From a virus: a DNA stretch of 64,000 nt. The notes under the pieces are model-generated. The model ran no database searches, had not been told where the DNA came from, and worked only from the letters and a program-made list of their open reading frames with translations. Position 1 is the first letter of the stretch. Every line of letters begins with the position of its first letter. Location: positions 1 through 64,000 of the IMG/VR virus record IMGVR_UViG_3300045988_115355; one strand, given 5' to 3'. The position numbers and the translations under genes were made by a program. Positions 180 to 9,595 of this stretch are shown here, in pieces.

Positions 180-1151
180 ATGGCATTTGCAAGAGGTAAA
201 GAATCTAAGGATTTTCAATTCAAACTTTACACAGGTATTGCTGCTCTTAAAGTTACTGCCGTCAATCCTACAGCTGAAGAATTAGCTAAGATGAGAGAGA
301 CAGAAGTAGGGCAGCCTATTAACTATGTAAGCACTACTACTATCAGAGTAGGTGATGATACTAAGGAAGTTCCACAAGTAAGACTTTCTTTTATCTGTGC
401 TACTGATAAGGAAGTAGCATGTAATAATGGTATTGAGACCACTGTTACCTTGCCTTTCTTCCTGAATAAGAGTTACCGTCATAGTAAAAGTGGTAAAGTG
501 CAGGTTATTGACAAGTTTGGTAGAACTGCATGGGTGACAGAAGAAGAATTCAAGGCTAAGAAGGTGCCTACCTATACTGACAAGCAGGGAAATACAGTTC
601 CCTTCCAAGTAGACAAGGATTATCGTGCTGTCTTTATGGGTGAGGAAGAGCTTACTTCTTTCATCAAAACTCTTCTCAACATTGATAGTCCTACAGAGTG
701 GGATAATGAGAATAGAACCTTCAAGATGAAGAAAGACACTACTGCATGTGAATGTAGGTTTGAAGTGGCTACCTTAGAGAAACTTTTTAAAGGTGATTTC
801 AGTGATATCAAGGAGATTATCTCTTATCAACCTGATAATAAGCTGAAAGTTCTCTTAGGTGTAAGAACTACTAATGAAGGTAAGCAGTTCCAAACTTTCT
901 ATAACAAGACTTTCATGCACTTAGGTGTATCAAACTTTGAGAAGTTAGCTGCTGAAGTAGCTACTGAAGAGAGTGAGGGTAGATTGAAAAATACTTTCTT
1001 TGAGGTTGGTAATCTTAAAGAGTACGTGGCAACACCCACATCTTATGCTGCTACCCCTGTAAGTAATGATGACCCCTTCTCACAAACTCCTGATAGTACT
1101 TCTACAGAGGAACCAAGTGTTGAAGACTTGGATAAGGACTTACCATTCTAA
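180..1151 (+). CDS. Single-stranded DNA-binding-like protein (323 aa) with an acidic C-terminal tip
   Basis: ATG at 180. C-terminus '...EEPSVEDLDKDLPF' matches the acidic D-(L/I)-P-F tail of bacterial and phage SSBs (B. subtilis SsbA ends DDDLPF). It is the first gene of the replication block. The OB fold cannot be confirmed by eye. Confidence 0.45.
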   Translation: MAFARGKESKDFQFKLYTGIAALKVTAVNPTAEELAKMRETEVGQPINYVSTTTIRVGDDTKEVPQVRLSFICATDKEVACNNGIETTVTLPFFLNKSYRHSKSGKVQVIDKFGRTAWVTEEEFKAKKVPTYTDKQGNTVPFQVDKDYRAVFMGEEELTSFIKTLLNIDSPTEWDNENRTFKMKKDTTACECRFEVATLEKLFKGDFSDIKEIISYQPDNKLKVLLGVRTTNEGKQFQTFYNKTFMHLGVSNFEKLAAEVATEESEGRLKNTFFEVGNLKEYVATPTSYAATPVSNDDPFSQTPDSTSTEEPSVEDLDKDLPF

Positions 1152-1161
1152 AGAAGTATAA

Positions 1162-2145
1162 ATGATAAGCAAAGGAAGACCTATATTAGGCAAGAGGACA
1201 ATTCTTTCAAAGATAGACGAGGTGTCTTTGTTGAAAAGATATCTCTCTGTGAAAAGAATTCCTTGTCTGATATGCTCTCCTTTAAGGGAAGATAAACACC
1301 CTTCATTTAGCATTTATAAAACAGCCAATGGTCATATTAAATATTATGATTATGCTACTTTAGATAAAGGTAATATCTTTGATTTATTAATGAGTATCTA
1401 CCATCTTTCCTTTAAAGAAGTTCTTTTGAAAGTATGGGAAGATGCTCATTTAAATATTACACCTATCTCTTTAAAAATTCCTTCTTCTCCTATATCAGAA
1501 TCTTATGTATCTATCAGAAGCATTAGAAGAGAATGGGAAGAAAAGGACTTTAAATATTGGGAATCTTATGGGGTATGTAAAAGATACTTATTACATAGTG
1601 ATATTTATCCTATATCTCATTATATGATTATTACACCTACTTATAATACACTTATTAAAGCTGATAAGATTGCTTATACTTATATAGAAAGGAAAGAAGG
1701 TCATATCACTGAAAAGATATATCAGCCCTTTAATAAGGATGGTTATAAGTGGAGAAGTAATCATGATTCATCAGTAATAGATTTATGGTGTATGCTTCCC
1801 TTAAAGGGAGAGAAGCTCATTATCACATCTTCAAGGAAAGATGCTTTATGTCTATGGTCTAACCTGCATATCCCCTCTATCAGTCCACAGAGTGAATCTA
1901 CATCTTTGAATCCTAAAGTAATAAGAGATTTGAAGAAGAGATTTAAAAAAGTCTATGTCCTGTATGATAATGATTTTAACAAGTCTTTTAATACAGGAGT
2001 AACTGATGGGAAGAAGTTATGTGATACTTTTAATCTTACATACATTGAAATACCTAAAGAATATAGCAGTAAAGACCCTTCTGACTTATATAAAAATAAA
2101 GGTAAACAGACCTTTATGGAAGTCATGGAGTGGTTATTAAAGTAA
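1162..2145 (+). CDS. DnaG-like DNA primase (zinc-binding + TOPRIM), 327 aa
   Basis: 'CLICSPLREDKHPSFSIY...GNIFDLLM' resembles the DnaG CHC2 zinc-ribbon ('CPFHxEKTPSFxV...GNAIDFLM'), although the second ligand pair is degenerate. 'VYVLYDNDFN' is a TOPRIM DxD motif, with an upstream 'GEKLIITS...DAL' acidic segment. Confidence 0.65.
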   Translation: MISKGRPILGKRTILSKIDEVSLLKRYLSVKRIPCLICSPLREDKHPSFSIYKTANGHIKYYDYATLDKGNIFDLLMSIYHLSFKEVLLKVWEDAHLNITPISLKIPSSPISESYVSIRSIRREWEEKDFKYWESYGVCKRYLLHSDIYPISHYMIITPTYNTLIKADKIAYTYIERKEGHITEKIYQPFNKDGYKWRSNHDSSVIDLWCMLPLKGEKLIITSSRKDALCLWSNLHIPSISPQSESTSLNPKVIRDLKKRFKKVYVLYDNDFNKSFNTGVTDGKKLCDTFNLTYIEIPKEYSSKDPSDLYKNKGKQTFMEVMEWLLK

Positions 2146-2177
2146 TTATTATTTATCAACATTTAAAAAGTAAAAAA

Positions 2178-2813
2178 ATGGAAGCAAGAGACATTTTAGT
2201 AAATGATGCACAATCTCAAAGTCGTTTTAAACTCCACACTGATGTGGAGACCTTTGGTGAGTTAAAAACTCTATTGCTTGAGAAAGGCATTAGCTTAGAG
2301 AATGTAACAGTAACTGAAGGAATTTCAAAGACTTCCTTTGTATCTGATGATTCTCTGTTGCCCAAAGACCAATTCTTCAAAGGTAAGAAGACCAATGAGT
2401 TGCTTATCCTTATCACTCCTAACAAGAAGATTAAGTTAGGTCTATCTCGTCAGGATGTACTAAAGCACATCAAAGAGAATGGTATGCAGGATGCTATCAA
2501 GGAACACTTTGGTAAGAACTTTACCAATGTATCCACAGCAGAACTTGTAGAGTTCCTTGTAGATAATCAAAAGGAAGAGAAAGAAGAGAAGCCTAAGTAC
2601 ACTGTATCTGAAGTAACATGTACTTTGGCAGAAAAACTGTTGGAGATTGGTGCAGAAATTGCTAAGTTGGCAGCTTTGGTGGAAACATCTTATCGTAAGG
2701 CTATGAAGGAAGGTAAACATGAAGACTGTAAGTCTACTAAGGTTTCCCATTTAGAGACGAAAGGTGGCCTTAGTGAGGAAGATTTGGATGAGGCTTTTGA
2801 AGACATGGAATAG
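2178..2813 (+). CDS. Hypothetical protein (211 aa from ATG 2178; the track shows a GTG start at 2130). Possible beta-grasp-like N-terminal ~80 aa, acidic helical C-terminus.
   Basis: ATG preceded by an A-rich leader. Residues ~15-85 alternate like a beta-grasp: 'FKLHTDVETFGELKTLLLEKGISLENVTVTEG...ELLILITPNKKIKLG'. There is no terminal GG. This is inference only. Confidence 0.5.
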   Translation: MEARDILVNDAQSQSRFKLHTDVETFGELKTLLLEKGISLENVTVTEGISKTSFVSDDSLLPKDQFFKGKKTNELLILITPNKKIKLGLSRQDVLKHIKENGMQDAIKEHFGKNFTNVSTAELVEFLVDNQKEEKEEKPKYTVSEVTCTLAEKLLEIGAEIAKLAALVETSYRKAMKEGKHEDCKSTKVSHLETKGGLSEEDLDEAFEDME

Positions 2814-2851
2814 TCTTATCATATAATCTATATATTTAATGTTTATGCTGA

Positions 2852-2886
2852 CCCCTTTACTCTTTTACAAGTAAAGGGGTTTTTTA
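2852..2886 (+). terminator. Rho-independent terminator after ORF 2178..2813
   Basis: Stem 'cccctttac' (2852-2860), 10-nt loop, stem 'gtaaagggg' (2871-2879), then 'ttttttattta'. Confidence 0.6.
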
Positions 2887-2906
2887 TTTATTAAATAGGA
2901 ATAATC

Positions 2907-3998
2907 ATGGAAGGATTATCATTTAGAGAAAGTTTAAAACAATGGAATGAGAATATACGACCTATCTATGAGGAAATAAAGCATTATTATGGTGAAGAGA
3001 GAGTAGATTTACAAAATAACCTTACACAAATCCTTACAAGTAAAGGATACAAATTAGATGATGTGATAGGTGGATGTGCGTATTTAGAAGTAAAAAAGAG
3101 TTTTCAGCATTATATCCTCATCTATTGGAATAAGGCTACTGTAACTAATGAGAGAGGGTTGTCTACAGATATTACAGATGTATATGTAAGACTTACCTTT
3201 AATTATGTTGGATGTTTGTACACCACAGTAGAAATGCTTAGAAGCAGTTACACTCAAAAAGAGTTAGATGCAGACTATATGCACTCTCATATCCATCATA
3301 TTAGTAGGAATTGGCAATCTATGTGCTTAGGAGATTCCTCTTTACTTATTCTAATGACTGAACTACAGAATAAAAATAAATATGAGGAAGGAGATTATAT
3401 CTTACTCTCTATGGAGTTAGATAAGGCTATTCATACAGAATCTCTTGCAGGGGTACCATGGGTCAGGATTGATAAACTCAAAGCAAGTAGGAAAAAGAAG
3501 CTATTTAATTTCAGAAATTTAAGTACAGAATATTCTATCTGTAATATCAAGTCCTATAATCTCTTATGGAGGGATATTATATGGGATTTAGTCAGGAATT
3601 CTGAAACTCTTTATTTCAGTTATTTTAAAGAAAAGAATATCATAAGCAGTAGTATAAGAACACTATTCTTAGAGATAAGTAATGTGATGATTAAACATTA
3701 CAACAAAGCTGTAGAAGAGAAAAAGTATAGCGACGCTATTACTATAAAAAGTTATTTATTGAAAGGAAGGGTAACAGATGAAGGTTTTTATTCTAAAAAT
3801 CTTGAAACACCTCCTTTAAGGAATTTAGATGGCCTTGAAGCTACTTTTAAAGGCAAGCAGCTGAAAGTAACTGTTATAAAAGAAGAAGAAAGAGAAGAAG
3901 ATAACTATTATATCAATAGTTATTACTTCAAAATGGTATTAAGTATTTTAAGTTTATTAAGTAATTATGAAGCAGAAAGACAGTTTAAAATCTTTTAA
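2907..3998 (+). CDS. Hypothetical protein (363 aa). Possible catalytically degenerate MPN/JAB-like paralog of the downstream gene.
   Basis: 'DADYMHSHIHHISRNWQSMCLGDSSLLIL' aligns with the downstream 'WDLALVHSHHNMSTHPSQTDIDTLLSL': same HSH-x7 spacing and a conserved Q, but the JAMM Ser is replaced by Trp and the Asp by Met. The upstream 'GGCAYLEV' parallels 'SGALFISHEE'. Confidence 0.4.
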   Translation: MEGLSFRESLKQWNENIRPIYEEIKHYYGEERVDLQNNLTQILTSKGYKLDDVIGGCAYLEVKKSFQHYILIYWNKATVTNERGLSTDITDVYVRLTFNYVGCLYTTVEMLRSSYTQKELDADYMHSHIHHISRNWQSMCLGDSSLLILMTELQNKNKYEEGDYILLSMELDKAIHTESLAGVPWVRIDKLKASRKKKLFNFRNLSTEYSICNIKSYNLLWRDIIWDLVRNSETLYFSYFKEKNIISSSIRTLFLEISNVMIKHYNKAVEEKKYSDAITIKSYLLKGRVTDEGFYSKNLETPPLRNLDGLEATFKGKQLKVTVIKEEEREEDNYYINSYYFKMVLSILSLLSNYEAERQFKIF

Positions 3999-5073
3999 AC
4001 TCATTATCTCTGTTAATGCAGAAGGTAAGATAAGATATTTACAAGAAAGGTTTCCTTCTACTGAATGGTCAGGAGCATTGTTTATCTCTCATGAAGAGAA
4101 GGATAATATATGTACTATTACAGCAGAGGACATATACCCAATGAATGTAGGTAGTTCTGTGTTCACAGAGTTTAATTTCAATGAAGAGGTAACCTCTTAT
4201 ATGGCTAATCATCCTGAAACCTTTGAGTGGGATTTAGCTTTAGTACACTCTCATCATAACATGTCTACCCATCCCTCACAGACAGATATAGACACTCTTC
4301 TTTCCTTAGGAGAAGATATTAATAGTCTGCTGTCTCTTATTGTAAATAATATAGGAGAATATACTGCTATGCTGTCAAGGAAGGCTACTACTAAGACAGA
4401 ACTAATTACTAAGGATATTACAAATACCTTATTTGATGGTACTTATAAGTCTCCTATTCCTGAAAAGAAGTGTAGTGATGACACTGTTGTAGTATGGGAA
4501 TATGTACCTATTACTATCATTAAAAGTGAGCCTATCACTACTATTAAGGAAAGAGTTGATGAGATTGAGGCTAAGCACATTAAGCTTCTTGAAGAGTATA
4601 AATATCCTAAGCAAGGAGAATTGGATTTTATGGATAGGTATTATAACCACCTTAGTAAGGAGAATACTTATTATTCTAAGTGGGATAATGAAGTTATCCC
4701 TGTCAGTGAAGACTTACAGGAGTTAGCTTTAAAAGCTGTACAGAAGATGGTGAAATGTAACATCAATATAGATGCTAAAACGTCTATATATGAGTTACAA
4801 AGGTTTGTATCTAATTATATGAACACTCTCTATACTCGTAATTTCTCAAATTCAAAGTATGGTAGTTATACTCTCTTTGATGATTGGGCATATTTCATTA
4901 CAGAGTTTATCCTTAATAAATATAGTGAGGAAGGTGATGAAGAAACCTTTATTAAAGCTGTATTAGATGTGCTCTATGAGTTAGATACACAAAATTATTA
5001 TATTACAAAGTATATAGAAATCCTTGAAGGTTTCTTACCTGAAGAGGACTATACACATATCATTAAAGATTAA
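3967..5073 (+). CDS. JAB/MPN+ (JAMM) zinc metalloprotease-domain protein (368 aa), with a ~200 aa C-terminal extension of unknown function
   Basis: Exact JAMM signature H-x-H-x7-S-x2-D at residues 94-107 ('HSHHNMSTHPSQTD', nt 4246-4287). An upstream Glu candidate lies in 'SGALFISHEE'. Confidence 0.7.
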   Translation: MKQKDSLKSFKLIISVNAEGKIRYLQERFPSTEWSGALFISHEEKDNICTITAEDIYPMNVGSSVFTEFNFNEEVTSYMANHPETFEWDLALVHSHHNMSTHPSQTDIDTLLSLGEDINSLLSLIVNNIGEYTAMLSRKATTKTELITKDITNTLFDGTYKSPIPEKKCSDDTVVVWEYVPITIIKSEPITTIKERVDEIEAKHIKLLEEYKYPKQGELDFMDRYYNHLSKENTYYSKWDNEVIPVSEDLQELALKAVQKMVKCNINIDAKTSIYELQRFVSNYMNTLYTRNFSNSKYGSYTLFDDWAYFITEFILNKYSEEGDEETFIKAVLDVLYELDTQNYYITKYIEILEGFLPEEDYTHIIKD

Positions 5074-5078
5074 GTAAA

Positions 5079-6059
5079 ATGAATGAAGAAAATTACAATC
5101 TTACAGATGAAGATGTAAATGTTATTCTTAATGAGTTAAATGGTAGCATAGATAGTGCTGCTATAGAGAATTCTGATGAGAATCCTACTGAACAGAATTC
5201 TACTGATAGTGCAGAAGATAACTCGAATGAAAGTGAAACCCCTGTAGCAGGGAATTCTACAGAGGATTCTCCCAATGAGGATTCTCCCAATGAGAATTCT
5301 ACTACTGAAGAGCCTGTTATTGTAGAACTTGTAATGGAGAATATTCCTTTAAACAATGATTCCACAATGAATGAAAATCGTAGTAGGTTCTCTGGAGCAC
5401 CATGGTTTAATGCTGTAGCAGAAGAAAGATGTTTTATCTTAGGAGCAGGAGGTATAGGTAGTTGGACTGCTTATCATATAGCTAAGTTAGGAACTTCTAT
5501 CTGTCAAGTAGATAATGATAGAGTATCTGCACAGAATTTAGCAGGACAACTGTTTGCAATAGATGATATAGGTAATTATAAAGTAAGTGCTTTAGGAAAT
5601 CTTATACAAAGACTGAATGATGAGTATAAGTATTCAGGAAGAGAAGTTAGACTGATGTCAGATGAACAATATGACAGATATATTATGCCTATTACTATCT
5701 CTTGTGTAGATAATATGGAAGCAAGAAAGAAACTCTTTAGAGCTTGGAAAAGACAGGAATATAGAGCTTTATTTCTTGATGGTAGGTTATCTGCTGACAC
5801 TTTACAAGTATTCTGTATAACAGGACAAGATGAGGCTTATATGAAGGAGTATGAAGAGAAATGGCTCTTTAGTGATGCAGAAGCTGATGAAGGAGTATGT
5901 TCTTTTAAACAAACTTCTTATATGGCTTGTATGATAGGTTCTATCATCACTAACTTGTTTATCAACTATGTTGCTAATAGAGCTACAGGAGACTATTATG
6001 ATTTACCTTTTTTCATAGAGTATAATGCTCCTTATGTTTTATTTAAAATACAAAAATAA
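5079..6059 (+). CDS. E1-like ThiF/MoeB-family adenylyltransferase (326 aa) with a ~100 aa acidic low-complexity N-terminus
   Basis: 'CFILGAGGIGSWTAYHIAKLGTSICQVDNDRVSAQNLAGQLF' fits the ThiF/MoeB Rossmann GxGxxG + 'DxDxVxxSNLxRQ' region. 'ISCVDNMEARKKL' fits the MoeB 'DCTDNxxxRxxLN' motif. A C-terminal 'GVCSF...ACMIGSIIT' segment is also present. Confidence 0.75.
   Translation: MNEENYNLTDEDVNVILNELNGSIDSAAIENSDENPTEQNSTDSAEDNSNESETPVAGNSTEDSPNEDSPNENSTTEEPVIVELVMENIPLNNDSTMNENRSRFSGAPWFNAVAEERCFILGAGGIGSWTAYHIAKLGTSICQVDNDRVSAQNLAGQLFAIDDIGNYKVSALGNLIQRLNDEYKYSGREVRLMSDEQYDRYIMPITISCVDNMEARKKLFRAWKRQEYRALFLDGRLSADTLQVFCITGQDEAYMKEYEEKWLFSDAEADEGVCSFKQTSYMACMIGSIITNLFINYVANRATGDYYDLPFFIEYNAPYVLFKIQK
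5262..5300 (+). repeat. 15-bp tandem direct repeat 'gaggattctcccaat' x2 plus a partial third unit, inside the E1-like gene (encodes EDSPN-EDSPN-EN)
   Basis: Units at 5262-5276 and 5277-5291 are identical. Read directly from the sequence. Confidence 0.6.
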
Positions 6060-6658
6060 TGGTCAGAGAGAATAAAGTATATACAGCTGTAGGCTGCTTT
6101 ATACGTGACCTACAGGATTATACTATTAAAGCATACTATAAAAGGAGTGGTCTTATATTACAAGTTAATTATGGTGATACTCCTTATATATGTATGTTTT
6201 ATATAGCTAATTTGAGAAAGGAATATAACAGGTTTACATCTTCTCTTTTCTCTCCACTCTTGCAATTTCCTCATCTTCTATATAAAGTGAGGATAGGAAT
6301 AAATACTTATTATTTAGGTAGTGGAATGGTATTAGATGTTAACTATAACCCTTTATTTTATGCTTATCATACTTATAGTATTCATCAGCAGAAGTATGAT
6401 TTAAATATCCTTATCCACAAGTCTTTAACTGACAGTAGTCATATCTTACATCTTTTATTTAAAGCATTCTGTAAGAATATGGCAGAGAATGGGTTGGTTG
6501 ATTTTAAAGTTGAAGATGATGTGAAGGAATATCCTGTTGATATACACGTACATATCACAGATACTATCTCTATAGGCCTATTAAAGTCCCCGTTTATAGC
6601 AGACCAAGAAATCATTAGAGATACTATATGTGCCAATATAAGTTTTCTTTTAGGATAA
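6059..6658 (+). CDS. Hypothetical protein (199 aa). Possible partner of the E1/JAB module.
   Basis: ATG overlaps the E1 stop as TAATG. No motif recognised. Ends '...ISFLLG'. Confidence 0.5.
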   Translation: MVRENKVYTAVGCFIRDLQDYTIKAYYKRSGLILQVNYGDTPYICMFYIANLRKEYNRFTSSLFSPLLQFPHLLYKVRIGINTYYLGSGMVLDVNYNPLFYAYHTYSIHQQKYDLNILIHKSLTDSSHILHLLFKAFCKNMAENGLVDFKVEDDVKEYPVDIHVHITDTISIGLLKSPFIADQEIIRDTICANISFLLG

Positions 6659-7143
6659 TGGGAAATAAAAAGATTGTAAATGCTACTACTCAAAAGGCTT
6701 ATAATATCTCTTTCAAGAGTTTATTGGAGAAGAGGTGTTATGAGCTTTTGATAGAAGCAGGATATCATCCTTTATATGAGGGAAAAACCTTTACTTTGAT
6801 AGATGGATTCACCCCCACAAAGCCTTTTATTAGTAGAGTGTATAACAGGAAAGAGAAAAGGAAAGTATTTTCTTTCGATAGAAGAAAAATACTACCCATC
6901 ACTTATACTCCTGATTTCACTTTCATGGTAAAAGATGTGTTGGCAATCATAGAGTGTAAAGGGTTTGAGAATGATGTGTTCCCTGTAAAGAAGAAACTAT
7001 TCAGACGACTTCTTGAAGAGAAAAAACATCCTGTTATCTTCTATGAGGTTTTTGCATTGAAAGATTTAAAAATATGTATTGAACAATTAGACAGATTAAA
7101 GCATGATAAAGAGTTTAAAAGAGATTTCTTGGCAGGTAGATGA
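6658..7143 (+). CDS. PD-(D/E)xK-fold nuclease (~162 aa from ATG 6658; possible resolvase or VRR-NUC-like)
   Basis: 'ITYTPDFTFMVKDVLAIIECKG' gives a PD...(E)xK arrangement. ATG 6658 overlaps the upstream stop; the track start at 6628 is in frame upstream. Confidence 0.5.
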   Translation: MGNKKIVNATTQKAYNISFKSLLEKRCYELLIEAGYHPLYEGKTFTLIDGFTPTKPFISRVYNRKEKRKVFSFDRRKILPITYTPDFTFMVKDVLAIIECKGFENDVFPVKKKLFRRLLEEKKHPVIFYEVFALKDLKICIEQLDRLKHDKEFKRDFLAGR

Positions 7144-8185
7144 ACCTACCTATAGGGCAGATGATGCCCTTTCCTATTCTACATTAGCTAAATATGAGAG
7201 AGAAGGTAAGTTTAACAGCTTACCTAAACTCTTTGAAAAGGTAAGTACACCATCACTTACTTTTGGCTCTATGGTAGATACTTTGATTACAGGTACTAAA
7301 GAAGAGTTTGATAATCTGTTTATGGTAGTAGATTTCCCTGCCATTTCTGATAGTCTTGTAGAAATAGCTACTACACTATATCAAAAGTATGGTAGCCATC
7401 CTAATGATATCTTTGAAGAGTATTATGAGAAATTTGAGGATATCCCTGAAAGTATCTTAGCTACTGTAGGTAAAGAATGTAACTTTTATGCCAATGATAA
7501 GTATGCTTCTTATAGGGCGAAAATTATCAAAGAGGGTTGTAAAGAATATTTTAACCTGCTTAAGCTATCAGAAGGTAAGGTCATTGTTGACAATGACACT
7601 GCTGATAAGGCTTATAAAGCTGTAGAAGCCTTAAAAACAAGTAACGCTACAAAGTTCTATTTTAAAGACGACAGTCCTTTAGAGCCTAATATTGAAAGAT
7701 ATTATCAGTTGAAATTTAAAGCTACTGATAGTATAGGTCTTGTTAACTATAGATGTATGGCGGATTTGATTATAGTAGACCATGCTACTAAGACTATACA
7801 GCCTATAGATTTGAAGACTTCTTCTCATGCAGAATGGGACTTTTATAAGTCCTTTATGGATTGGCGTTATGACATACAGGCAAGACTATACTACAGACTT
7901 ATTCAAAGTAACTGTGCTAAGGATGAGTACTTTAAAGACTTTAAGATTTTAGACTATAAGTTTATTGTAGTCAATAAATCCTCTTTAACACCTTTAGTGT
8001 GGACTTATCCTCATACACAGGTACAAGGAACTCTTAAATATAGTTTAAATTCAGGCTATATGTTTACTTTAAGAGATCCTTATGAGATAGGAAAGGAATT
8101 AAATTATTATCTTTGTCGTCCTGATGTTAAAGTACCAAGAGATATTAGGGATGATAATAACATTGTAGAGTTTATAACAAAGTAA
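7103..8185 (+). CDS. RecB/Cas4-family PD-(D/E)xK exonuclease (phage recombination exonuclease-like), 360 aa
   Basis: 'ADLIIVDHATKTIQPIDLKTSS' supplies the hhD and DxKT motifs. 'YDIQARLYY' is a QxxxY motif. The true start is uncertain: it overlaps the upstream gene by 41 nt. Confidence 0.6.
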   Translation: MIKSLKEISWQVDEPTYRADDALSYSTLAKYEREGKFNSLPKLFEKVSTPSLTFGSMVDTLITGTKEEFDNLFMVVDFPAISDSLVEIATTLYQKYGSHPNDIFEEYYEKFEDIPESILATVGKECNFYANDKYASYRAKIIKEGCKEYFNLLKLSEGKVIVDNDTADKAYKAVEALKTSNATKFYFKDDSPLEPNIERYYQLKFKATDSIGLVNYRCMADLIIVDHATKTIQPIDLKTSSHAEWDFYKSFMDWRYDIQARLYYRLIQSNCAKDEYFKDFKILDYKFIVVNKSSLTPLVWTYPHTQVQGTLKYSLNSGYMFTLRDPYEIGKELNYYLCRPDVKVPRDIRDDNNIVEFITK

Positions 8186-8351
8186 GTATGAAGTATCTCA
8201 TTAATGCTGATTTAGTACATTTCAATAAGCTCTTTAGAGCTACTGCTATTGTAGTAGCTAAGGATGAAGAGGCTGCTATAGCTAAATATAAAAGGAAAAT
8301 CAGAAGTACACTACACATGAAGTGTACGGAGATTAATATTGAAAGTCTATC

Positions 8352-8609
8352 ATGGGGTTGAATAGAAAATGGGAAGCTTTTATAGATACCCATATCCCCT
8401 ATGAAAAGAGAGGATATATCTATAAACGCTATAGTGAAGATGAGAGATTAAGACAGATTGCTCATCAGAGAAGAGGATTTGTAAAGGGTTATAAGGCTTA
8501 TAGAGACTTAGTAAAAACTCATTTAAAGCTCTTTCCTAATGAGACAATGACAGAGTTTAAGGAGTTTTTAAAGAAACTCCCTAAACCTTTCTCTCCTGAA
8601 GATAAATAA
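8352..8609 (+). CDS. Hypothetical small basic protein (85 aa)
   Basis: ATG ORF. No motif. Confidence 0.4.
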   Translation: MGLNRKWEAFIDTHIPYEKRGYIYKRYSEDERLRQIAHQRRGFVKGYKAYRDLVKTHLKLFPNETMTEFKEFLKKLPKPFSPEDK

Positions 8610-8618
8610 GTAAAGAAT

Positions 8619-9116
8619 ATGAAATTAAAGATTAAAGTTAAAGTAAAATTTGATTCCCTTTTCCCTGAAGTCATTGATAAGGGAGATTGGGTGGATTTAA
8701 AATTGCCTTATTTGGCTATCTTAAATCCTTGTACAGCTAAGGGGAATGGGGAAATACAATTTTCCTATAATAACATTCCTTTGGGAATAGCTATGGAGCT
8801 TCCTAAAGGATTTGAAGCTATTGTTGCTCCAAGGAGTTCTACCTTTCAGAGGTATGGTATCATTCAAGCTAATGGGATAGGAGTGGTGGATAATAGCTAT
8901 TGTTCTGATAAAGATGAATGGCATTTCCCTATTATCTCTACAAAGAGAATTACTGTCTTTGAAGGTACAAGATTATGTCAGTTTAAGATACAGTTATCAC
9001 AGAAAGCTACCTTCTTACAGAAACTGAAATGGTTATTCTCTAATGGTATTGAATTTATCAAAGTCTCTTCTTTGGATAATGAGACAAGAGGGGGCTTTGG
9101 GAGTACAGGTGATTGA
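8619..9116 (+). CDS. dut: dUTP diphosphatase (dUTPase)
   Basis: All the conserved dUTPase motifs are present: 'VAPRSSTFQRYGI', 'GVVDNSYCSDKDEW', 'RLCQFKI', and the C-terminal 'TRGGFGSTGD'. Confidence 0.9.
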   Translation: MKLKIKVKVKFDSLFPEVIDKGDWVDLKLPYLAILNPCTAKGNGEIQFSYNNIPLGIAMELPKGFEAIVAPRSSTFQRYGIIQANGIGVVDNSYCSDKDEWHFPIISTKRITVFEGTRLCQFKIQLSQKATFLQKLKWLFSNGIEFIKVSSLDNETRGGFGSTGD

Positions 9117-9118
9117 AG

Positions 9119-9595
9119 ATGATTATAACAAGTATTATTATTTTTATCTTTGTAGTCTCTTGTATCTATATCAAGTATGAAATATCCAAGAGTATCTATG
9201 TACTTCCTTTCTTAGAGCCTGTAAAGGATTTAAAGTTCCCTATTATCACCTTTGATTGCCAAGGTAAGAAATTAAATTTTATCATTGACACAGGGAGTAT
9301 GGATTCTATTATAGACAGTGAAGTATGTAATACTCTTGAAGGAAGAGTGCTTGATAAACAGTCTACTATCTATGGTTTAAATGGGGTTCTTTCGCAAGCA
9401 TATTATATCCTAATAGATTTAGAGTATAAAGGGAATAAGGTCGAAAACTTATTCTTAACAGCAGATATCAAGGAGACTATGAAGGACTTTAAAGAATCTA
9501 AAGGTATAGAAATTCATGGTTTGATAGGTAGTAAATTCTTAAATGTTTATCAATCTATTATAGACTATAAGAAAGAGTGTTTAACATTTAAATAA
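9119..9595 (+). CDS. Membrane-anchored retropepsin-like (clan AA) aspartic protease, ~158 aa from ATG 9119 (track TTG start at 9113)
   Basis: Hydrophobic N-terminus 'MIITSIIIFIFVVSCIYI'. Active-site motif 'FIIDTGSMDS' (DTG at 9287-9295). C-terminal 'IHGLIGSKFL' matches the retropepsin hhGxDhL motif. Confidence 0.55.
   Translation: MIITSIIIFIFVVSCIYIKYEISKSIYVLPFLEPVKDLKFPIITFDCQGKKLNFIIDTGSMDSIIDSEVCNTLEGRVLDKQSTIYGLNGVLSQAYYILIDLEYKGNKVENLFLTADIKETMKDFKESKGIEIHGLIGSKFLNVYQSIIDYKKECLTFK

Follow-up and report, generated by a model that had tools for sequence, protein, structure and literature searches.

We analysed a stretch of 64,000 nucleotides (nt) from a virus (positions 1 to 64,000 of the IMG/VR record IMGVR_UViG_3300045988_115355; hereafter the window) and focused on five plus-strand genes at 2178-6658, here called U, A, B, C and D (Table 1). 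We propose that this region is probably a phage-encoded ubiquitin-like (Ubl) conjugation operon of the bacterial type, in which U supplies the modifier, A an E2-like protein, B a JAB protease, C an E1 and D an accessory protein, and that it belongs to the replication module of a crAss-like (Steigviridae-type) phage. The window has a G+C content of ~32%, and its nearest nucleotide matches were Steigviridae crAss-like phages (IAS virus, cr85_1, cr126_1) at ~70% identity over short stretches. In the replication block, all on the plus strand, a 323-amino-acid (aa) open reading frame (ORF) and a DnaG-type primase (1162-2145) precede the module; after it come genes for a DUF1064-type resolvase, a PD-(D/E)XK exonuclease and a dUTPase, and then one for a family-A DNA polymerase.

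Table 1. Features of the module, in window coordinates.
Feature	Position	Strand	Description
Gene U	2178..2813	+	Ubl-fusion protein, 211 aa
Intrinsic-terminator-like hairpin	2850..2891	+	12-bp stem then T-run, in the 93-nt U-A gap; found by consensus scan
Gene A	2907..3998	+	E2/UBC-like protein (model-based), 363 aa
Gene B	3967..5073	+	JAB/MPN+ metalloprotease, 368 aa
Gene C	5079..6059	+	Single-domain E1/ThiF-family adenylyltransferase, 326 aa
Gene D	6059..6658	+	199 aa; start overlaps the stop codon of C

An earlier reading of this DNA (the original prediction) had singled out A, B and C as a co-directional trio with the hallmarks of Ubl conjugation and deconjugation. The three ORFs are indeed tightly packed: A and B overlap by 32 nt, B and C are separated by 5 nt, and C and D overlap by 1 nt. 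All motifs quoted at the time were located: ORF A contains YMHSHIHHISRNWQSMCLGD (aa 124-143), ORF B contains HSHHNMSTHPSQTD (aa 94-107), and both GAGGIGS and VDNMEARKKL occur in ORF C. The Pfam match of C, the invariant JAMM residues of B and the conserved gene order, all described below, place the module beyond chance, and with a genuine JAB and a genuine E1 that has an invariant crossover-loop Cys, the central claim of a ubiquitin-like conjugation/deconjugation-type module inside a phage was borne out.

ORF C matched Pfam ThiF at 64.9 bits (cut-off 28.1; E 7.9e-18), as expected of the E1-like gene that had been predicted. Its core (aa 97-326, nt 5367-6059) contains the G-x-G-G-x-G loop, the Mg-binding Asp211, Arg216 and Cys274 (nt 5898-5900), and D211, R216 and C274 were found in 91/91 sequences; the invariance of catalytic residues was counted over about 91-94 distinct sequences for all families. 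C carries an E1 adenylation domain with its ATP/Mg residues and a catalytic Cys, and no CxxC zinc motif or second adenylation domain was detected in it. In searches against PDB sequences, the C profile matched UBA5, MccB, UBA1, ThiF and MoeB at E 1e-15 to 1e-12 and was about equidistant from UBA5, MccB, PaaA, UBA1, ThiF, MoeB and TcdA. Profile alignment with hhalign gave 99.3% over 193 columns for PRTRC ThiF, where Cys274 falls on the Cys of the PRTRC 'SCS', and 97.7% for MoeB. Cys274 lies 8 residues past an LFSD segment that aligns to the LFGE of MoeB; MoeB Cys187, read from the sequence beyond the end of the alignment, presumably lies 4 residues past LFGE. All NCBIfam equivalog scores of C were far under their cut-offs. 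TcdA (the tRNA ct6A dehydratase, NF011696), which we considered as an identity for C, reached 28.5 bits against a cut-off of 304; together with the beta-grasp partner encoded by U, this removes the concern, raised along with the original prediction, that the E1 might fall in a non-Ubl clade such as TcdA and have no such partner.

Upstream of its core, C has an acidic, low-complexity extension rich in Ser, Asn and Glu (residues 1-95, window 5079-5363), whose length and sequence are wholly variable among related phages, with no such extension in Fpv3 or Dulem virus 41 and a far longer one in cr106_1 and PhiCrAssBcn4. An E1 with 28.7% identity in the Xanthomonas jumbo phage PhiXhv-12 (3238-7488 of that locus) was set aside as a related module, U, A, B and D being absent there and the next ORF, of 70 aa, not ending in Gly. 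That gene lies between DNA ligase and topoisomerase genes, adjoins an 892-aa ORF that had no Pfam match, and may represent a separate E1-based system of jumbo phages.

The JAB domain of B (~aa 1-145) contains Glu33 and the JAMM motif H94-S-H-x7-S104-x2-D107 (nt 4246-4287) and is followed by a conserved C-terminal extension of ~220 aa. E33, H94, S95, H96, S104 and D107 were invariant in 93/93 distinct orthologues, in keeping with the canonical JAMM protease originally proposed. The PADLOC JAB model matched B at E 0.007, and a profile built from 11 orthologues matched CSN5 (E 0.009) and archaeal JAMM1 (E 0.02) among PDB sequences, aligned across the motif. With hhalign, PRTRC protein A (Prok-JAB) was matched at a probability of 69.6%. 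Judged by these comparisons, B probably presents the E ... HxH-x7-S-x2-D site on an MPN fold. A RadC-type JAB was considered and discarded, with no RadC match at E <= 0.1 and with the Prok-JAB and PADLOC JAB models as the only matches.

The original prediction had noted that no GG-ended Ubl was apparent. This is literally so; nevertheless, a Ubl domain with an invariant internal Gly sits in the flanking ORF U. Residues 1-88 of U (nt 2178-2441) comprise a ubiquitin-like beta-grasp and a tail that runs up to the invariant Gly88 (codon 2439-2441); this part of U has the form of a beta-grasp modifier whose flexible tail ends in Gly. In the structural model, a beta-beta-alpha-beta...beta domain spans residues 1-82 at a predicted local distance difference test (pLDDT) of ~87-93, and residues 85-87 are disordered. 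In residues 89-211, a small helical domain bearing a GKNFT motif is followed by a long helix, and the chain ends in an acidic helix. Orthologues of U were found in all related phages, and another 120 homologues were collected.

That U divides at Gly88 is evident from two natural variants. In cr106_1 (3435-4638 of its locus), an HNH endonuclease ORF (3715-4230) interrupts the U gene two codons past the Gly, leaving a 92-aa Ubl that ends in KKIKSGKF and, in an ORF of its own, the C-terminal part; a homing endonuclease seems to have inserted precisely at the domain boundary. In the second variant, P0270, the C-terminal part of U stands alone.

Some further features of U varied or were weakly matched. 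Its C-terminal part (89-211, window 2442-2813) had a weak PDB profile match to PHIKZ101 (9xph_B, E 0.07), aligned over GKNFTNVTT, and the C-terminus itself is a conserved acidic helix (S..EID.MF). Some orthologues, such as those of cr126_1 (846-1772 of its locus) and DAC15 (4128-4868), have an insertion within the beta-grasp ('AAKGTTPATT'), and that of cr126_1 has an additional ~50-aa domain that matches phrog_26927.

For A, a word-indexed homologue search returned one relative alone (91% identical), whereas an exhaustive HMMER search returned a family that forms 1274 clusters at 50% identity. When 121 of these were aligned, N81, E82, Y124, S127, H128, C140, G142, E178, S179, G182 and P184 proved invariant, and the alignment yielded a confident AlphaFold2 model with a pLDDT of 86.7 and a predicted template modelling score of 0.74. 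The N-terminal half of the model consists of a helix, a strand, inserted helices, three long strands, a loop that carries the HSH and Cys140, and two helices. We assign ~aa 1-190 to a UBC-like domain, with H126-S127-H128 at nt 3282-3290 and Cys140 (nt 3324-3326) in the loop preceding helix 145-155, and ~aa 195-360 to an alpha/beta C-terminal domain. The fold-level matches of A include RWD domains and UEV, which are non-catalytic members of the fold. The original prediction had read A as an MPN-minus protein with a degenerate JAMM motif. This did not survive: as modelled, A is UBC-like and not MPN-like, with no MPN or JAB structure among the 60 structural matches listed. Of the two findings named as refuting the original prediction, the lack of an MPN fold in A therefore applies and the non-Ubl E1 without a beta-grasp partner does not.

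At the sequence level, we searched for an E2 in A without success. Pfam and PADLOC scans of the 121 family members and a profile search against PDB sequences gave no match, nor did hhalign comparisons with six eukaryotic E2 sequences and with PRTRC Prok-E2_D. The best local hhalign match put the 'MCLG' of A on the 'ICIG' Cys of PRTRC-B at a probability of 0.2% and was not counted, and Foldseek of the A model against the PDB gave nothing under E 0.77. With moderate confidence, we equate the 'HSH ... C' of A with the active-site loop 'HPN ... C' of E2 enzymes.

Downstream of the E1 gene, D was present in 73/80 IMG/VR loci and in most loci from other sources; its only invariant residue is Gly89. 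It had no match in Pfam, NCBIfam, PADLOC or PHROG function assignments, no DUF6527 match, and two profile searches against the PDB were also empty. Homologue searches returned hypothetical Crassvirales proteins only, one of which, a public 'Crassvirales sp.' protein from a metagenome-assembled genome (MAG), is 100% identical to D. The D orthologue of the Flavobacterium phage Fpv3 (6681-7769 of its locus) is 362 aa long and has a long C-terminal extension tipped '...EEPQVEDLPF', an acidic tip like that of single-stranded DNA-binding protein (SSB), which hints that D contacts the replisome.

To follow the module through related phages, as the original prediction had suggested, we mapped hidden Markov models of the five families onto fetched loci. 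The five genes stood in the order U-A-B-C-D in 73/80 IMG/VR loci, as they did in each complete locus of a further 18 annotated ones from phages or MAGs; in the remaining 7/80, contig ends cut the module or a gene is broken into two ORFs. The module occupies one fixed position between primase and recombination genes in nearly all of these ~98 loci. The most distant loci, from MAG bins of Bacilli, Nitrososphaerota, Tissierellaceae and Flavobacteriales, are themselves taken to be phage DNA because a primase is mostly upstream and an exonuclease is downstream in several of them. Identity between genera is 25-40%, as for fast-evolving proteins. A search for related loci with the E1 protein alone returned a near-identical contig only. 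Relatives of B are encoded on 425 IMG/VR contigs. Of 50,697 phage records, the only ones with matches to both A and C were those of Steigviridae-type crAss-like phages, of the Flavobacterium Fpv phages and of a few unclassified relatives. Public labels for these proteins are 'thiamine biosynthesis protein', '(contains) metalloprotease domain' and 'hypothetical', and PHROGs lists all the families as function-unknown. In the full-text literature, we found no description of the module as a system in crAss-like phages; a remark in the 2026 literature likens a gut-phage protein family to UBA5 in passing.

Relatives also carry a hairpin and T-run, unrelated in sequence, at the place equivalent to that of the intrinsic-terminator-like hairpin after U. 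Under a strict criterion, which 3/500 random windows pass, the hairpin was present after U in 52/95 loci and after A, B, C or D in 0-7 of about 91-97 loci. The modifier gene is therefore apparently split transcriptionally from the enzyme genes, and such a terminator could let it be expressed at a different level.

From the folds and motifs computed for the four components, their invariant catalytic residues, the strict synteny with the primase and the conserved terminator, we infer a pathway of cleavage, thioester relay and isopeptide formation on a target protein. The JAB would cut U after Gly88 to release an 88-residue Ubl, now with Gly at its C-terminus, and the helical C-terminal part as a second fragment. 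The E1 would then adenylate Gly88 and hold the Ubl as a Cys274 thioester before handing it to Cys140 of the E2-like A. As the module contains no E3, the C-terminal domain of A, perhaps with D, would pick a lysine on a phage or host protein, and the JAB could also undo the modification. Processing of U by the JAB would have precedents in BubCD/BubAB and in the predicted TAPI/TAPK pair (see below). Because Gly88, Cys140, Cys274 and the JAMM site are invariant together, we expect active chemistry at all four steps, and the fixed place of the module beside the primase suggests a role in replication or host takeover rather than an accessory anti-defence function.

Several points weigh against a conjugation operon. 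The Gly of the Ubl is internal rather than C-terminal and is single (K-S-G or R-S-G in most orthologues; K-L-G in this window) instead of GG, and cleavage of U after Gly88 is a prediction from the sequence. B scores 19.4 bits against Pfam Prok-JAB (E 0.001), under the gathering cut-off of 25, and the searches gave no match that would explain D. The E2 assignment is the main uncertainty, its sole positive support being the fold-level evidence from the model of A.

The module would function like Bil or PRTRC, yet on the sequence comparisons made here it falls outside Bil, Bub, the cyclic-oligonucleotide-based antiphage signalling system (CBASS), PRTRC and ThiS/MoaD alike. The PRTRC (ParB-related, ThiF-related cassette) systems of conjugative plasmids and of integrative and conjugative elements (for example, pMOL28) have the order ParB - E - C (Prok_Ub) - F (alpha-hel2) - B (Prok-E2_D) - A (DUF2016 + Prok-JAB) - ThiF, and that of pMOL28 shares the order Ubl, E2, JAB, E1 with the phage module. 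Both also reside on a mobile element and adjoin its DNA-maintenance genes. PRTRC ThiF is the nearest identifiable E1 clade by the hhalign comparison given above; it shares with C a 'CS..KQ' Cys motif and the lack of a zinc CxxC, PRTRC_ThiF was the second-best NCBIfam match of C, and PRTRC ThiF genes were among the best plasmid tblastn matches. However, C reached 52.3 bits against the TIGR03736 cut-off of 144.75, no ParB, PRTRC-E, alpha-hel2 (F), Prok_Ub, Prok-E2_D or DUF2016 was detected in the window proteins, and U and A aligned to PRTRC C, B and F with hhalign probabilities of < 1%. In addition, the phage Ubl is fused to a helical C-terminal part, the extra gene D is present, and the carrier is a virulent-type phage genome instead of a plasmid. 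We know of no established function for PRTRC.

The four BilABCD genes encode Ubl, E2, JAB and E1 in this order, and Bil, which has no E3, is proposed to pick targets directly through its E2 (PMC11601596). The phage module has the same four activities in the same order and likewise no E3. It differs in its E1, which has one adenylation domain of ~230 aa, whereas BilD has an inactive adenylation domain in tandem with an active one (IAD-AAD) and a CYS domain; no PADLOC or Pfam model ties U or A to Bil proteins, and Bil is located in bacterial defence islands, in contrast to the phage replication block. Bub works through Ser and Tyr oxyester chemistry and has no catalytic cysteines (PMC11601596), whereas Cys140 and Cys274 of the phage proteins are invariant. 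Type I Bub (6E/DUF6527) has a Ubl-E2 fusion, a JAB-E1 fusion and a DUF6527 serine protease; the phage genes are separate, and no DUF6527 match was found. In BubCD/BubAB, the JAB is reported to cleave a Ubl fusion to give a functional Ubl (PMC11601596).

The E1-E2 fusion of type II CBASS (Cap2/Cap3) is absent here; the PADLOC E1-E2 models matched the Rossmann part of C only (best E 1.5e-10), and among the ten proteins of nt 180-9116 there was no Pfam nucleotidyltransferase or effector family that could be a CBASS partner. TAPI of phages lambda and T1 is a beta-grasp with a conserved Gly, a linker and a C-terminal domain, predicted to be cut by the TAPK JAB (PMC1779556). U resembles TAPI in all these respects, including the predicted cut by a JAB, but TAPI/TAPK is a tail-assembly system in a tail context and has no E1 or E2, whereas the phage module has both and lies in a replication context.

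We weighed four other explanations. The module could be an anti-defence device, as the original prediction had suggested. The JAB might, for example, remove conjugates made by host Bil or CBASS from cGAS-like enzymes or phage proteins; alternatively, a host defence protein might be tagged and so neutralised by the cascade. Bil and type II CBASS do serve in phage defence (PMC11601596), and the fast evolution of the proteins would fit such a role. However, deconjugation needs the JAB alone, yet the Ubl, E1 and E2-like protein are all kept with intact active sites, no PADLOC model matches U, A or D, and the fixed position in nearly all loci suggests a core block. The biochemistry would be the one proposed above; the anti-defence purpose is not favoured, given a primase-side position that is held across deeply diverged phages, and we consider it rather unlikely.

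Alternatively, the genes could form a sulfur-carrier or biosynthetic system of the ThiS/MoaD-ThiF/MoeB type, in which the E1 adenylates and thiocarboxylates a JAB-trimmed beta-grasp, as in CysO/Mec+ and QbsE/QbsD, and A is a Cys-dependent sulfur acceptor or transferase, perhaps for nucleotide or DNA modification. We think this improbable: C scored 54.9 bits against 159 and 38.5 against 266 for the ThiF and MoeB equivalogs, no rhodanese, CxxC zinc site, ThiG, MoaE, sulfurtransferase or cysteine-desulfurase partner was found in the module, A appears from its model to have a UBC-like fold, and the Ubl ends in a single Gly inside a 211-aa fusion rather than in GG.

We give similarly little credence to a use other than conjugation, with the proteins acting as replisome scaffolds or in other chemistry, the beta-grasp serving just as an interaction domain, the E1 adenylating a peptide or nucleotide like MccB or PaaA and A being an RWD- or UEV-like adaptor. 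MccB and PaaA match the E1 profile as well as UBA5 does, the matches of A to UEV and RWD are to non-catalytic members of the fold, and the acidic C-terminal helix of U and the SSB-like 'EDLPF' tip of the Fpv3 D orthologue would suit such a role, but the joint invariance of Gly88, Cys140, Cys274 and the full JAMM site is hard to square with scaffolds, and the gene order is that of Bil and PRTRC operons. Finally, we hold it very improbable that A is an MPN-minus pseudo-protease and partners the MPN+ JAB in the way of Rpn8/Rpn11 or Abraxas/BRCC36. The letters H-S-H and an upstream Glu (E82, conserved in 86/93 sequences) agree with it, but the second subunit, as modelled, lacks the MPN fold of such heterodimers and the pairing is contradicted at the fold level.

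It is quite possible, if short of probable, that crAss-like (Steigviridae-type) and Fipvunavirus phages run their own complete Ubl cascade as a core part of replication or host takeover. An 88-residue Ubl released from a precursor would then be attached to a protein of the replisome, of recombination or of the host. Descriptions of Ubl conjugation in bacteria (type II CBASS, Bil, Bub) have until now presented it as a weapon of the host against phages, whereas here the full Ubl machinery would be on the phage side, with intact active sites and across a large crAss-like clade. It would apparently be the first self-encoded E1-E2-deubiquitinase-Ubl system of a virus of bacteria, as we found none reported earlier, and would offer a functional model for the uncharacterised PRTRC cassettes of conjugative plasmids. 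The module would also be unusual in lying in a replication block and not an accessory island, in an E2-like family unrecognised by sequence methods and in a Ubl made as an N-terminal fusion. Because cultured carriers exist, namely crAss001 and PhiCrAssBcn (Bacteroides intestinalis), DAC15 (B. thetaiotaomicron) and the Fpv phages (Flavobacterium psychrophilum), the prediction is directly testable.

Other ORFs of the window were also inspected. The 323-aa ORF directly upstream of the primase (180-1151, plus strand) had no Pfam or PHROG match; it is kept upstream of the primase in two of the related loci (L014 and L019), has an acidic C-terminal tip ('...VEDLDKDLPF') like the bacterial SSB tip, and may be a phage SSB or replisome organiser. 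No tRNA genes were found across the whole window. The genes switch from the plus to the minus strand at ~22,500, where the GC skew likewise goes from plus to minus, and the minus strand carries giant ORFs of 1354, 2996, 1823, 1395 and 1674 aa. Just before the DNA polymerase gene, a 160-aa ORF (9113-9595, plus strand) contains 'IIDTGS', a retropepsin-like D-T-G motif; relatives have counterparts labelled aspartyl or retropepsin-like protease.

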